DNA of 56,045 nt from Gammaproteobacteria bacterium. Its GTDB lineage: Bacteria; Pseudomonadota; Gammaproteobacteria; PS1; Pseudothioglobaceae. A program made the translations under genes and the position numbers. The notes beneath the pieces are model-generated. The model saw nothing but the letters and a program-made list of their open reading frames with translations, had not been told where the DNA came from and did no database searches. Shown here one piece after another: positions 47,225-50,914 of the stretch. Every line of letters begins with the position of its first letter. Within the stretch, counting starts at the first letter, position 1. The DNA is taken from the NCBI GenBank assembly GCA_008080915.1, contig VMDI01000049.1, positions 1-56,045 on the forward strand, in the 5' to 3' direction.

Positions 47225-47411
47225 ATTGTTTTGGGCCTGAGTTGTATTCAGACTCAAAATATGTAAAATGATTTGTGTTCTAAGTATTAATTATTGCATT
47301 ATTGTCTCCGCAATATGTGTTATTTATAGCCTTTTGGTTATTTATTCGTTCACTTGCTTTAATTTTTATTTAGAACACTATTAAATTAACTACATTACTC
47401 TTTGGGGAGTT

Positions 47412-47430
47412 GTATAAAGACTTGTTTACA
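47412..47430 (+). promoter_or_regulatory. Palindromic operator-like motif GTATAAAGACTTGTTTACA upstream of mini-protein gene A1
   Basis: Starts 50 nt upstream of the ATG at 47462. Matches the motif upstream of paralog A2 at 16 of 19 positions. Imperfect dyad TAAAGA-N2-TGTTTA. Confidence 0.5.
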
Positions 47431-47461
47431 AGTTAGGGTTTTATTACTACTGGAGTTATAA

Positions 47462-47704
47462 ATGAATAAATTAAGTATCTTATTTGCATCATTGTTTGCA
47501 TTTTCAATGAGTGTAAATGCTCATATGGCTGGTGAAAATACACCTAAACTACCTACCGTGAATGGTGGTACTGAAGCTCAAAAAGAGGCAGTTCGCCAGG
47601 GTGCTAAAGAGTTTTGTGAAGAAAAAGAAGATGATGAAAGAGAAGAGTGTGTCATGGACTTCTATGCGAATCATAATCTAGAAGAAGAGCCTAGCTGTGA
47701 CTAA
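47462..47704 (+). CDS. Secreted acidic 3-Cys mini-protein, paralog A1 (80-aa precursor, about 60 aa mature)
   Basis: Signal peptide MNKLSILFASLFAFSMSVNA, then HMAGE... Mature part is 51/60 identical to the product of 50609..50851. SD-like GGAG upstream. Has its own terminator. Confidence 0.8.
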   Translation: MNKLSILFASLFAFSMSVNAHMAGENTPKLPTVNGGTEAQKEAVRQGAKEFCEEKEDDEREECVMDFYANHNLEEEPSCD

Positions 47705-47723
47705 TTACTCAAACAATTAAAAT

Positions 47724-47747
47724 AAGCCGCTTATAGCGGCTTTTTTT
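47724..47747. terminator. Bidirectional Rho-independent terminator shared by A1 (+) and the convergent minus-strand operon
   Basis: Stem AAGCCGCT (47724-47731) / AGCGGCTT (47735-47742) with loop TAT. T7 follows on the plus strand; A/T-rich tail on the minus strand. Confidence 0.8.
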
Positions 47748-47758
47748 ATATCTGTCTA

Positions 47759-48637
47759 TTATTGATACAAATTAGAAAGCCAAGAATCAACTCTATCGAC
47801 AAGCTCTGTAGACATTGACTCCTCTTTGTAATAGTGATCTGCCTTCCCAACGACTAGTTGTATACTTTTGTCGGGTTTTTTCTGAGAAAGTTGCTTCTTT
47901 CTCTCTTCTGACATTCTTTTAACTCCTGGAAAGTCATTTTCTCCGAAGATATCTAATACTGGGGCCACCATTTTTTCGATAGGAAATGGCTTAATCAGCT
48001 TTTGTTTATAGTCAGTCGCGCCCATACCAATTCCCACATAGCTATTGAACTTAGAGTCGCCATACTTGTCAATGTAACTCATTGACATATGTGCTCCACA
48101 GCCATGCCCGATAAGATGGATATTATTCACCCCCTTTTCTTTTAAAAAGTCTACGGCAGCATCAATGCGCTCATGCGCATACGGAAAAATAGGAACATAA
48201 TCATAATACTTAGCCTCTTTATCTAACACTGGCATTTGAACGGATAGCGTATGCCACCCCTTATTAGCCAATCCAACTCTAAGCGGTTTGACGACAGTCG
48301 CCCAATTTGCATGATAACCTCTTGAGTGAAGCAAAATAACCGCACCCTTAGGTTTTTCCGCTTCAGATTCCATAAAGATGGTGAAAACTTTTCTACCGTC
48401 TTTGAGTGGCAAATATTCGACATCCCCATCCATGACAGCTTCTTCGATCTCCTTTATCATACGATCTTCTCGCTTAAAATCAGGCTGCTTATCGATAAAT
48501 TCATTGAAGTATTGTCTGAGTTGATTTGGATCAAACTCACCAAACATTGGAAGTTTTGGCATATTATCAAACCATAGCGCAGAAGCACTTAAAGAGACAA
48601 AAGCTCCCAAAAATATAATCAGTCTTGTAAATTTCAT
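47759..48637 (-). CDS. Secreted alpha/beta-fold hydrolase-like protein (DUF3530-like) with Cys at the nucleophile elbow
   Basis: 292 aa with signal peptide MKFTRLIIFLGAFVSLSASA. GAVILLHSRGYHANW oxyanion region, elbow LIGHGCGAH (G-x-C-x-G), later FGENDFP (Asp) and KADHYY (His). Confidence 0.75.
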   Translation of the reverse strand: MKFTRLIIFLGAFVSLSASALWFDNMPKLPMFGEFDPNQLRQYFNEFIDKQPDFKREDRMIKEIEEAVMDGDVEYLPLKDGRKVFTIFMESEAEKPKGAVILLHSRGYHANWATVVKPLRVGLANKGWHTLSVQMPVLDKEAKYYDYVPIFPYAHERIDAAVDFLKEKGVNNIHLIGHGCGAHMSMSYIDKYGDSKFNSYVGIGMGATDYKQKLIKPFPIEKMVAPVLDIFGENDFPGVKRMSEERKKQLSQKKPDKSIQLVVGKADHYYKEESMSTELVDRVDSWLSNLYQ

Positions 48638-49164
48638 TTAAATTCCCCCAACTTAATCAATGCATCCTCGGCTAAAGGGTGTTTATTTTTATAAGCCTCT
48701 TTTAACCAATATATGGCTTTCTCCTGATCACCTAATTCCAGAAGCAGTGAAGCCAAGTTATATTGGGCATATTCATCTTTGCCCTGTGAAGATATTGTCC
48801 ACCATTTTCTAGCCTTGTCTATATTTTTTTTTACTCCCCTGCCTTGGTAAAAAAGCATCCCTAATTCTGTTTGTGCATGATTCAAGCCTTGGAAAGCAGC
48901 CATGGATAGGTACTCATAAGCTCTAGTGTCATCCTTTTCAACACCCAGACCATGAAGATAGCTTAGTCCGATGTTATTTTGTGCAGGAGCGTAACCTAGG
49001 TCAGCTGATTTCATCATCAGATCAAATGCTTTTTTATTTTGACCCTTCTGAGAGTATTCAAACCCCTCTTTATAGAAATCTAGTGCCTCAGAGCTTGAGG
49101 CAAATGTGAAGTTATTAAGAAAAAAAAGGGACGCAATAAGCATCCCTTTAATTAGATTTTTCAA
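48634..49164 (-). CDS. Secreted Sel1-like repeat (SLR/TPR-type) protein
   Basis: 176 aa. Repeats of type A...GYAPAQNNIGLSYLHGLGVEKD..RA..YL..AA.QG...AQ..LG. The annotated start is TTG (49164); an alternative ATG lies at 49143. 4-nt overlap with the hydrolase gene. Confidence 0.75.
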   Translation of the reverse strand: MKNLIKGMLIASLFFLNNFTFASSSEALDFYKEGFEYSQKGQNKKAFDLMMKSADLGYAPAQNNIGLSYLHGLGVEKDDTRAYEYLSMAAFQGLNHAQTELGMLFYQGRGVKKNIDKARKWWTISSQGKDEYAQYNLASLLLELGDQEKAIYWLKEAYKNKHPLAEDALIKLGEFK

Positions 49165-49169
49165 CTGAG

Positions 49170-49832
49170 TTACTTCGTAGTTAAACCAAGAAGTTGCCAG
49201 TCGTTCATACCACCACGGTAGTACTTAATCTTGTCTTGTGGATAACCCATAGTCAATAAGGCTCTGATTGAAGCAGGAGACTGACCACACCATGAACCAT
49301 TACAGAACAAGTATAGAGTCTTCGCTTTATCGTAATTCAAAACACCATCCATGTCTTGAACACCGAAGTCTTTAACTAGGATATCAACTACAGCCATAGG
49401 ATCCTTAGCAAGTGCCTTAGAGTTAAGTTTAGTAAAAGGGACATTCACAGAACCTGGGATAGTGCCTTTCTTAACCCAACCTGGGGTACGAGCATCGACC
49501 AACATGATATTTGAATCACCGTCTGCCTTATCTCTAGCAGCGTGAATCATATCTAGCTCAGTAATTGTCTGAACTCTAGCTGGAGTAAATGGAGCAGTTG
49601 GTTGGATACAAAACGGAGGGCAAGGACGTGAAGTCTTTGCGAAATCTGGGTTAACAGTATTGTTTGTATTTTGATTACGAGAAATACCCGCAACAGTTCC
49701 AACACCCTTGACAATTGCCACTTTACCTACTGGTGAACAACCATTGTTCCAGTTGTTATCAGCGCCACAAAATGCATTTGCACCGAAAGTAAAAGCTGAA
49801 GCAGCAAAACCGATAAGTAATTGTTTTTTCAT
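49170..49832 (-). CDS. Periplasmic rhodanese-domain protein with CPPFC motif, paralog R1
   Basis: 220 aa with a signal peptide. KTSRPCPPFCIQPT segment, rhodanese fold (LVDARTP..W..GTIPGSVNVP) and active-site loop LFCNGSWCGQS. Confidence 0.85.
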   Translation of the reverse strand: MKKQLLIGFAASAFTFGANAFCGADNNWNNGCSPVGKVAIVKGVGTVAGISRNQNTNNTVNPDFAKTSRPCPPFCIQPTAPFTPARVQTITELDMIHAARDKADGDSNIMLVDARTPGWVKKGTIPGSVNVPFTKLNSKALAKDPMAVVDILVKDFGVQDMDGVLNYDKAKTLYLFCNGSWCGQSPASIRALLTMGYPQDKIKYYRGGMNDWQLLGLTTK

Positions 49833-49855
49833 TGTTTTTCTCCTCTAAATTGAGT

Positions 49856-49877
49856 ATGTGCCCACAAGTGGGCACAT
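49856..49877 (-). terminator. Perfect hairpin between the tandem rhodanese genes (attenuating terminator or mRNA processing/stability element)
   Basis: ATGTGCCCAC-AA-GTGGGCACAT with 10-nt arms. Located 13 nt after the R2 stop and 24 nt before the R1 start. No U-tract follows on the minus strand. Confidence 0.4.
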
Positions 49878-49889
49878 GTTAATGAATAA

Positions 49890-50540
49890 TTACTTAGCTG
49901 TTAAACCAAGAGATTTCCAAGCATTCATACCACCACGGTAGTACTTGATCTTATCTTGTGGGTAACCCATAGAAAGAAGAGCTCTAATTGATGCTGGAGA
50001 CTGTCCACACCATGAACCATTACAGAACAAGTATAGAGTCTTAGCATTGTCATAATTTAGAACACCGTCCATATCTTTAACACCGAAATCCTTAGTCATG
50101 ATATCTACAACCGCCATAGGATCCTTAGCAAGTGCCTTAGAGTTTACTTTTGTGAATGGAACGTTAACAGAACCTGGGATAGTACCTTTTTTAACCCAAC
50201 CTGGGGTACGAGCATCAACTAAAACGATATTTGAATCGCCATTTGCTCTGTCTCTAGCAGCGTGAATCATATCTAGCTCAGTCACTGTATCAACAGCAGC
50301 TGGTAAGAACGGTTCAGTTGGCTGGATGCAGAATGGAGGGCAAGGACGTGAAGTCTTTGCGAAATCTGGATCGATTGTTGCACCGTTATCTTGGTTACGA
50401 GAAATGCCCGCAACTTCCATAACACCTTTAACAATACCTACTGGCTTAGCGCCTTTCTTGTTATGACCTTCAGCAATCGCGCCAGTAGATGCTAATGCAA
50501 CCGCAACTGCAGCTGAAGTGAAAATTGTACGAAGTTTCAT
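49890..50540 (-). CDS. Periplasmic rhodanese-domain protein with CPPFC motif, paralog R2
   Basis: 216 aa with a signal peptide. 149/173 residues identical to R1 over the region from AGISRNQ to the C-terminus (manual count). Same CPPFC and CNGSWCGQS motifs. Confidence 0.85.
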   Translation of the reverse strand: MKLRTIFTSAAVAVALASTGAIAEGHNKKGAKPVGIVKGVMEVAGISRNQDNGATIDPDFAKTSRPCPPFCIQPTEPFLPAAVDTVTELDMIHAARDRANGDSNIVLVDARTPGWVKKGTIPGSVNVPFTKVNSKALAKDPMAVVDIMTKDFGVKDMDGVLNYDNAKTLYLFCNGSWCGQSPASIRALLSMGYPQDKIKYYRGGMNAWKSLGLTAK

Positions 50541-50608
50541 ATATATCTCCTCTTTTTTTTACTTAAGTAATTAACCCCATCTTCTCCTCGGGATTTCTTT
50601 ATCTTATG

Positions 50609-50851
50609 TTAATCGCAGCTTGGTTCTTCTTCCAGATTGTGATTAGCATAAAAATCCATTACACACTCTTCTCTTTTTTCGTCCTCTTTGTCAGAACAAA
50701 ACTCTTTTGCTCCTTTGCGAACTGCCTCTTTTTGTGCGTCAGTTCCACCATTAACGGTCGGTAGTTTAGCTACCTTTTCACCTGCCATATGCGCATTAAC
50801 ACCAAGCGATAGCACGCACGCAGCAGCAAACATTACTGCCAGTTTATTCAT
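50609..50851 (-). CDS. Secreted acidic 3-Cys mini-protein, paralog A2 (first gene of the minus-strand operon)
   Basis: Signal peptide MNKLAVMFAAACVLSLGVNA, then HMAGE... SD AGGAGA upstream. Same three Cys and identical C-terminal 20 residues as A1. Confidence 0.8.
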   Translation of the reverse strand: MNKLAVMFAAACVLSLGVNAHMAGEKVAKLPTVNGGTDAQKEAVRKGAKEFCSDKEDEKREECVMDFYANHNLEEEPSCD

Positions 50852-50873
50852 TCTTGTCTCCTAATATGAATGA

Positions 50874-50914
50874 GTGTAAAGACATCTTTATACCACGTCA
50901 TATAAGGATTTCAA
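50874..50914 (-). promoter_or_regulatory. Sigma70-type promoter of the A2-R2-R1-Sel1-hydrolase operon with overlapping palindromic operator-like motif
   Basis: On the minus strand: TTGAAA (50914-50909), 16-nt spacer, TATAAA (50892-50887). The dyad GTATAAAGA-TG-TCTTTACAC (50893-50874) has perfect core TAAAGA/TCTTTA and overlaps the -10. Confidence 0.5.

Follow-up and report, generated by a model that had tools for sequence, protein, structure and literature searches.

A set of six genes was analysed in a 56,045-nucleotide (nt) stretch of DNA, referred to here as the window (contig VMDI01000049.1 of the gammaproteobacterial assembly GCA_008080915.1). Five of the genes form an operon on the minus strand which, in order of transcription, encodes an 80-amino-acid (aa) mini-protein, A2 (50609..50851), two tandem paralogous rhodaneses, R2 (216 aa, 49890..50540) and R1 (220 aa, 49170..49832), a Sel1-repeat protein of 176 aa that has no cysteine (48634..49164), and a 292-aa protein of the DUF3530 family with an alpha/beta-hydrolase fold (47759..48637). 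The sixth gene, on the plus strand (47462..47704), is monocistronic and encodes A1, an 80-aa paralogue of A2; both mini-proteins end NLEEEPSCD. All six products appear to be secreted, as each N-terminus shows by eye the features of a Sec-type signal (an n-region with basic residues, then a hydrophobic core and a site of the A-x-A type). A first-pass annotation had proposed that the whole set is a periplasmic cysteine relay. The sequence comparisons described below support a narrower conclusion: that A and the rhodanese R, which is distinguished by a CPPFC motif, are a widely conserved and functionally linked pair.

By placement of their homologues, the window proteins belong to the SUP05/Thioglobus clade, whose members rank among the most abundant bacteria that oxidise sulfur in oxygen-minimum zones, in vent plumes and in symbioses with animals. 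The closest relatives are metagenome proteins, 97-99% identical, and the proteins of Candidatus Thioglobus autotrophicus are about 80% identical.

Organisation of the locus

The six open reading frames (ORFs) were found where the first pass had placed them, with a gap of 5 nt between R1 and the Sel1 gene and an overlap of 4 nt between the Sel1 stop and the DUF3530 start. The operon is flanked by rnhA and asnB on one side and by DUF455 and rluE on the other. A repeat search of the window showed that A2 is a duplicate of A1 in inverted orientation (194 nt at 82%) and that R1 and R2 form a direct repeat (300 nt at 84%).

The promoter proposed ahead of A2 could be read from the sequence as a sigma-70-like element on the minus strand (50887..50914), consisting of a -35 box TTGAAA (50914-50909), a 16-nt spacer and an extended -10 element TGgTATAAA (-10 at 50892-50887). 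A consensus promoter scanner made no call for the operon promoter, and the blocks CTTG(C/A)A and TGGTATAA upstream of A are kept in four other SUP05 genomes (L001, L002, L003 and L086). Part of this region is duplicated ahead of A1 on the plus strand, where the promoter-proximal element GTTGTATAAAGACTTGTTTACA (47409..47430), which includes an extended -10 element TGtATAAA, is an inverted repeat of 50875-50896 (22 nt at 82%). The operon and A1 have in common a bidirectional intrinsic terminator (47724..47742), as had been proposed; its 8-bp stem contains five GC pairs and is accompanied by T-runs on both strands. The perfect hairpin reported between R2 and R1 was also recovered on the minus strand by RNA folding (49856..49877; 9-bp stem, -16.6 kcal/mol, z = -3.4). 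It has no T-run and is possibly a processing or stability element.

The mini-protein A

A1 and A2 are 76% identical and their last 20 residues are invariant in 25 homologues. A homology search with A2 gave 97 homologues, all from the SUP05 clade, and in 92 of these the C-terminus is EEEPSCD. The penultimate cysteine on an acidic tail, to which the first pass had drawn attention, is thus borne out, and the tail recurs in other lineages as described below. The mature protein is about 55-60 aa long. C52, C63, M65, H71 and C79 are invariant in SUP05 A, but this body, with its three cysteines and one histidine, is specific to the lineage. The three cysteines by which A was first described are therefore a property of the SUP05 proteins and not a defining feature, many A-like proteins elsewhere having only the cysteine of the tail.

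Neither A1 nor A2 matched a family in Pfam, NCBIfam or PHROGs, and sequence and profile searches found no similarity to A among PDB sequences. A is a new family of small proteins, which current annotation overlooks or calls 'hypothetical'.

The rhodanese R

Profile searches placed the rhodanese, Sel1 and DUF3530 proteins above the curated Pfam cut-offs, in agreement with the families first assigned. For the rhodaneses the PF00581 scores were 51.3 bits (R1) and 53.9 bits (R2) against a cut-off of 22.2 bits. Both R proteins carry CPPFCIQP in an N-terminal extension and CNGSWCGQS in the active-site loop, giving two pairs of cysteines. These motifs had been recognised from the window sequence and proved to be near-invariant among 120 SUP05 homologues of R, in which CPPFCIQP is present in 118 and CNG[SA]WCGQS in 119.

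The same is seen at greater distance. In an alignment of 29 diverse members C69, C73, C172 and C177 (P0339 numbering) are invariant, the family-specific extension of about 70-80 aa takes the form ...R.QD...F.KTSR.CPPFCIQP... and the loop reads CNGxWCxQS. The segment LYLFCNGSWCGQS aligns with the catalytic-loop region of YOR285W, and the cysteine that starts the loop, after the central beta-strand, is invariant in the 29 members. The family is large: a full-library search gave relatives in 732 clusters at 50% identity and a genome scan gave at least 596 confirmed relatives. No specific NCBIfam family covers R, the matches to PspE in NCBIfam and PDB being weak, and sequence and profile searches of the PDB returned generic rhodanese matches only, with no solved structure covering the N-terminal extension. 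R can be classed from its sequence as a rhodanese-domain protein with predicted sulfurtransferase activity.

Two variants of R were noticed. P0338 (449 aa) joins two complete CPPFC-rhodanese units in one natural polypeptide, which recalls the tandem genes R2 and R1 of the window. In P0406 and P0445 (about 460 aa) an R-like domain without cysteine (TPPFF, FDNGPW) is joined to a C-terminal region that is long, helical and sensor-like.

Pairing of A with R

The association of A with a CPPFC-rhodanese that had been proposed from the window recurs across many species and metagenomes, whichever of the two genes is taken as the starting point. In the forward direction, 80 R loci from other GTDB species, containing 18,347 frames (stop to stop, 25 aa or longer), were scanned for a strict tail, [DE]PxC[DE]-stop. 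The tail was found in 43 frames. Every one of these precedes R in the same orientation, and in 40 cases the frame ends no more than 400 nt before R. When a separate, relaxed definition of the tail was applied to the same loci, an ORF upstream of R was found in 52 of the 80. In the reverse direction, metagenomes were scanned with degenerate DNA encoding [DE]3-P-[DE]-C-[DE]-stop, giving 120 loci. An R start follows within 400 nt downstream of the tail in 50 of these, and 10 more are small secreted ORFs cut off by the end of the contig. Among the 1,034 frames of the window the tail is present on A1 and A2 only.

The 43 tails of the forward test are encoded by 43 distinct DNA strings, in which all four proline codons, both cysteine codons and the three stop codons are used, so that selection acts at the level of the peptide. 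R is single-copy in the 80 loci and its wider neighbourhood there is mostly housekeeping and not conserved.

The A-like ORFs of the 80 R loci, the metagenome loci and the SUP05 loci were pooled (n = 108). A crude hydrophobicity rule found a signal-peptide-like start in 105, and the median length is 67 aa. In 46 of 105 A-like proteins of the pooled set the tail cysteine is the only cysteine. Bodies outside SUP05 are often of low complexity and acidic, with tails such as EEEPDCE, EEEPDCD and EEEPECD. A hidden Markov model (HMM) of the A family gave no significant match to the ORFs of the 80 distant R loci. The link between A and R outside SUP05 is therefore seen through the tail only, as homology of the A body is undetectable, and only the putative signal peptide and the acidic cysteine tail are conserved there, on a body that varies.

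A group of A-like proteins with five cysteines was observed at L012 and L014-L018 (Arenicellales and related metagenome-assembled genomes, MAGs); these have a compact body of the form ...AWCEANQNACVTWCE.HPD.EIC.EPECD.

The variability of the body bears on the possibility that the pair handles metals or metalloids, in which case the acidic cysteine tail and the SUP05 motif CVMD...H would bind Cu, Hg, As or Se and R would act as a reductase or chaperone in the fashion of the Cdc25/Acr2-type rhodanese fold. The five invariant residues of SUP05 A speak in favour of this, as do weak NCBIfam matches, all far under the cut-off, between R and rhodanese-type selenoprotein families and between the Sel1 protein and MerG. 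A would, however, make a poor metal site, since its body varies outside SUP05 and so many of the proteins have a single cysteine. In addition, the R loop does not have the CX5R arginine of arsenate reductase/phosphatase-type rhodaneses, and no metal-resistance or transporter genes were seen in the window operon or among the recurrent neighbours of R. Metal handling is accordingly judged quite improbable.

A also recalls the leader peptides SecM and TnaC, being a small ORF directly ahead of R whose signal peptide is followed by a variable body and by a strongly conserved, proline-containing C-terminus at the stop codon; this C-terminus could in principle stall the ribosome to control translation of R. 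The distance from A to R ranges from about 12 to more than 200 nt, however, and the body of A with its three cysteines is well conserved in SUP05. A1 is monocistronic, with a promoter and a terminator of its own and no gene downstream of it, and the tail is found where there is no R (in a clam symbiont, at L168 and in phages) and fused to a Sel1 protein. As A1 stands alone and the tail occurs without R, a cis-acting leader role was rejected; the chance that it is correct is considered minimal.

The tail on other proteins and in phages

The fused example, at L195:4296-4703, is a secreted protein with Sel1 repeats (37.7 bits in Pfam) that ends ESEDEPECD. Its neighbours are a second Sel1-like ORF, recognised by inspection, and a weak DsrE-like protein; the 10-kb locus contains no R. 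A 243-aa lipoprotein-like ORF at L088:365-1096, rich in Lys/Glu/Ala repeats, ends EEEDEEPECD, and in the following 1.5 kb of that strand no R was detected. At L168 an A-like gene precedes a thioredoxin-like gene and a gene of the group c83.

Tails were also found in viral sequence. About 33 of the 42 tail-motif matches in IMG/VR (L208-L249) are small signal-peptide proteins of 55-85 aa ending TEEEPDCE, for example at the tail sites L242:619-642 and L243:8595-8618, and the observation extends to the metagenome loci L102, L105, L113, L115, L128, L138, L150, L165, L167 and L190. The viral contigs examined come from low-GC, T4-like, uncultured marine phages; the L242 RNase H shares 49.5% identity with its counterpart in the OM43 phage Melnitz and 45% with the one in the Pelagibacter phage HTVC008M. 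The phage proteins surfaced through the scan with tail-motif DNA, a scan of the viral contigs with the SUP05-A alignment giving no match. They had no tblastn match in deposited phage genomes and no PHROG family, and a scan with the R alignment found no R on the viral contigs. The phage tail genes may be auxiliary genes that use the R of the host, and they hint at a new class of auxiliary gene.

The presence of the tail on Sel1, lipoprotein-like and phage bodies as well as on A indicates, at the level of sequence, that the tail is a functional unit. In this it resembles PEP-CTERM with exosortase and GlyGly-CTERM with rhombosortase, where a short conserved C-terminal motif on unrelated secreted proteins is matched by one partner family. 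The A tail differs in having no hydrophobic helix or basic cluster and in ending with cysteine and an acidic residue, and its partner is a rhodanese instead of a membrane protease or transpeptidase.

Proposed function of the pair

Rhodaneses carry a persulfide on the catalytic cysteine, and SoxY and DsrC carry sulfur on a cysteine of a C-terminal arm. By analogy with these proteins a sulfur or thiol relay is a plausible reading of the A-R pair. A would be exported, its signal peptide removed, and its cysteine, second from the C-terminus, presented on a flexible acidic arm (...E-E-E-P-x-C-D/E). R would likewise be exported, with its two cysteine pairs in the catalytic loop (C-N-G-x-W-C-x-Q-S) and in the extension (C-P-P-F-C-I-Q-P). 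The catalytic-loop cysteine of R would take up sulfane sulfur, for which polysulfide, thiosulfate, Sox-bound sulfur and S0 are candidate donors, and would pass it to the tail cysteine of A, either by sulfur transfer or by disulfide/persulfide exchange, with the second cysteine of the loop and the CPPFC pair serving as resolving or relay thiols. A would then be a mobile, protein-borne carrier of persulfide or thiol, comparable to the C-terminal cysteine arm of SoxY or DsrC. To our knowledge SUP05 bacteria lack SoxCD, and a module of this kind would suit the handling of periplasmic zero-valent sulfur in them. In SUP05 both R and A are duplicated, A1 having its own promoter, and the Sel1 and DUF3530 genes would be co-transcribed with the pair.

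That the core of the locus is such a two-part periplasmic module, a rhodanese with a cysteine-arm carrier, is on balance the interpretation that we favour, with modest confidence. Of the relay envisaged in the first pass, the link between A and R therefore stands, and is plausible by the analogy with SoxY and DsrC; the hydrolase does not survive as an enzyme with a cysteine nucleophile and the case for a Sel1 scaffold is weak, as discussed below. A more ambitious version, in which the tail and the CPPFC-rhodanese are an unrecognised but widespread persulfide carrier that moves zero-valent sulfur from Sox or from deposits to cytoplasmic rDsr, and in which T4-like phages plug their own tail proteins into the host rhodanese, is speculative and seems doubtful.

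Several known systems resemble the pair in part. A SoxL/SoxY system in a SoxCD-less sulfur oxidiser was reportedly described by Welte et al. in 2009. DsrC and TusE have a penultimate C-terminal cysteine on a mobile arm that accepts a persulfide from a sulfurtransferase; they are, however, proteins of the cytoplasm, some 100 aa long and folded (the DsrC fold), whereas A is secreted, about half that length when mature, often of low complexity and not homologous. The exported single-domain rhodaneses PspE and Sud (polysulfide-sulfur transferase) share with R a catalytic cysteine but do not have its CPPFCIQP extension, the second cysteine in the catalytic loop or a dedicated small partner gene. 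The closest functional precedent appears to be SoxL/SoxY, SoxL being set beside R by its published description. In Allochromatium vinosum, SoxL (Alvin_2171) is a rhodanese-like protein of the periplasm, and it has been proposed to regenerate the cysteine of SoxY by transfer of sulfane sulfur (PMC3368242). As with A and R, a periplasmic rhodanese-like protein is combined with a carrier that has a cysteine near the C-terminus of a flexible arm, in a host without SoxCD. The differences are that A is not similar to SoxY in sequence (it matched nothing in Pfam or NCBIfam), that its tail is the acidic EEEPxC[DE] and not the GGCGG of SoxY, that the A-R operon contains no SoxZ-like gene, and that the SoxL gene lies directly downstream of soxXAK, which the R genes of the window do not. 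The module thus appears from its sequences to resemble known cysteine-arm sulfur relays, and what is new is the carrier family together with a distinctive rhodanese subfamily.

The first-pass statement that no characterised system has this composition agrees with the literature: full-text searches (DUF3530, SUP05 rhodanese, SoxL, CPPFC, periplasmic rhodanese, Alvin_0258) gave no description of an A-R module. How periplasmic sulfur intermediates are carried in SoxCD-less organisms is a step for which the pair is a concrete candidate. The pair is conserved in many gammaproteobacterial lineages, and a single cysteine on a short acidic tail offers a simple chemical handle.

The neighbours of R were counted in 130 loci outside SUP05 (the 80 genome loci and 50 metagenome loci, within the fetched flanks). 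Thioredoxin-like genes recur, c9 (AhpC/TSA-Redoxin) at 12 loci, c88 at 10 and the double-thioredoxin c38 at nine, as does a DsrE-family gene (56.8 bits, nine loci), and their recurrence near R strengthens the relay interpretation. The same thioredoxin-like genes, adjoining R in several lineages, would also fit a purely thiol-disulfide role in which R is an oxidoreductase (CxxxC and Cx4C), the tail cysteine of A is its substrate or a glutathione-like redox buffer kept reduced via thioredoxin-like partners, and sulfane sulfur is not involved. Such a role would account for the two invariant cysteine pairs of R, and a Cx4C loop is also found in the rhodanese-like protein BH2092, for which there is a solved structure. 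On the other hand, the catalytic cysteine follows the beta-strand (LFCNG), as is canonical for a rhodanese, in a sulfurtransferase fold, and the DsrE-family neighbours suggest sulfur transfer. Persulfide and disulfide chemistry would look alike in sequence data, and we regard the redox role as unlikely without dismissing it.

A divergently transcribed thioredoxin-fold gene of the AhpC/TSA-Redoxin type was also noticed next to R at several loci of the L012/L014-L018 lineage.

A number of observations weigh against the sulfur relay or limit its scope. No upstream A-like ORF was found at 28 of the 80 R loci, of which 27 retain both cysteine motifs, so R can evidently work without an adjacent A. 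Conversely, A is found without R in the phages, at L168 and in the Isorropodon fossajaponicum clam endosymbiont (L002), which has the order A-Sel1-DUF3530 and no R within 8 kb. Some carriers of R, such as Methylophilaceae and Leucothrix MAGs, are not known to oxidise sulfur. Outside SUP05 the rest of the operon seldom accompanies R: 11 of the 130 loci have a DUF3530 orthologue (E 1e-63 to 1e-74) close by, in at least two arrangements unlike that of SUP05, and Sel1 is essentially absent. The AF2 model of R2, made from a SUP05-only alignment of 22 sequences, had a mean confidence (pLDDT) of 57 and left the N-terminal 79 residues unresolved, so the position of CPPFC relative to the catalytic loop cannot be read from it. 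Finally, the isoelectric points (pI) of SUP05 R (9.0-9.1) and A (4.3-4.7) are opposed, but the R core has a median pI of 6.8 across the family. Global charge complementarity between a basic R and an acidic A, true in SUP05, was consequently discarded as a general feature of the pair.

The Sel1 and DUF3530 proteins

The Sel1 protein matched PF08238 with 78.7 bits in three stretches, and the DUF3530 protein matched PF12048 with 94.8 bits (cut-off 29.8 bits). An AF2 model of the latter (pLDDT 80.7) was matched by Foldseek to esterase, S9 peptidase and dienelactone hydrolase folds; a search of PDB sequences gave only marginal alpha/beta-hydrolase matches (E about 0.1).

The first pass had read the motif G-H-G-C-G as a nucleophile elbow with a catalytic cysteine. 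The motif is present and the acid and histidine positions are retained, but the cysteine is not the nucleophile. Alignment with a lipase sets G-H-G-C-G opposite G-H-S-Q-G, which puts Gly179 at the nucleophile position and Cys180 one residue beyond it, and in the AF2 model Gly179 lies between a strand (173-178) and a helix (180-192). The form xHGCGxHM is present in 117 of 120 SUP05 DUF3530 homologues. Orthologues outside SUP05 (L025, L028, L038, L041, L043 and L047) read AHSCG, with a conserved acid (D/E) and histidine, from which it appears that SUP05 lost the serine and kept the neighbouring cysteine. The dienelactone hydrolase profile PF01738 scored 19.0 bits, under its cut-off of 21 bits. 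With the cysteine displaced, the profile under its cut-off and the orthologues reading AHSCG, an enzyme with a cysteine nucleophile of the dienelactone hydrolase kind was rejected.

The window protein belongs to the same family as DUF3530 proteins of Pseudomonas such as P. aeruginosa PA0599, which share its minimal alpha/beta-hydrolase fold and are likewise secreted or envelope-associated. The Pseudomonas members have been described as having no catalytic triad and are deemed non-enzymatic (PMC11878206). Close orthologues of the window protein outside SUP05 differ in keeping Ser-acid-His, and SUP05 has Gly for Ser, so the published view may fail for the AHSCG subfamily. The loss of the serine in SUP05, and the Ser-Cys kept elsewhere, bear on the annotation of the DUF3530 family. 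As the window protein has lost the serine nucleophile, it and the Sel1 protein are probably accessory or binding proteins and not enzymes. The idea that Sel1 is a scaffold, with the DUF3530 protein in the same machine, is a weak one.

Within SUP05 the arrangement is well preserved. T. autotrophicus and one vent MAG have the order A-R-R-Sel1-DUF3530, a 1.5-Mb SUP05 genome has A-R-Sel1-DUF3530, with one R, and the Sel1 gene is present at every SUP05 locus examined. The housekeeping flanks (rnhA, asnB, DUF455, rluE and smpB) are, however, as syntenic across SUP05 as the operon itself, and with the whole neighbourhood conserved in this way the conservation of the operon says little about function. 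In the clam endosymbiont a gap of about 400 nt (L002:8228-8633) was noticed where R would be expected, and the A tail is perfectly kept despite the reduced genome.

It must therefore be asked whether the six genes are one system at all, or whether A and R are a module beside an unrelated envelope pair, Sel1 and DUF3530, held together by inherited SUP05 synteny. Besides the synteny of the region, this would explain why 119 of the 130 R loci outside SUP05 have no DUF3530 orthologue in the fetched flanks and nearly always no Sel1; furthermore, DUF3530 genes of Pseudomonas, seen as non-enzymatic, lie near the envelope genes lptD and murU (PMC11878206). The tight packing of the SUP05 operon, with one terminator, argues the other way, as do the retention of A, Sel1 and DUF3530 together where R has been lost, the recurrence of DUF3530 orthologues close to R in two or more other arrangements, and the tail on one Sel1 protein. 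The co-occurrence of Sel1 and the hydrolase with A and R, as first proposed, thus holds as synteny within SUP05 but only loosely beyond it, and a pair of passengers is a serious possibility, although we incline slightly away from it.

Other neighbours of R

A gene without an assigned family, c83, lies near R in nine of the 130 loci. Sox-like genes were found within 6 kb of R in one of the 80 genome loci (L038), where they were called from N-terminal sequences by inspection.

A secreted protein of about 97 aa without cysteine (...GEPPISEWVYGGFRVYFE...LHSI...), which has no Pfam family, is encoded upstream of R in 20 of the 80 loci, among them L030, L036, L037, L040, L044, L046, L049, L053-L057 and L060. 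The arrangement at these loci is lolCDE, the small protein, R and mfd, sometimes with an A-like gene inserted before R.

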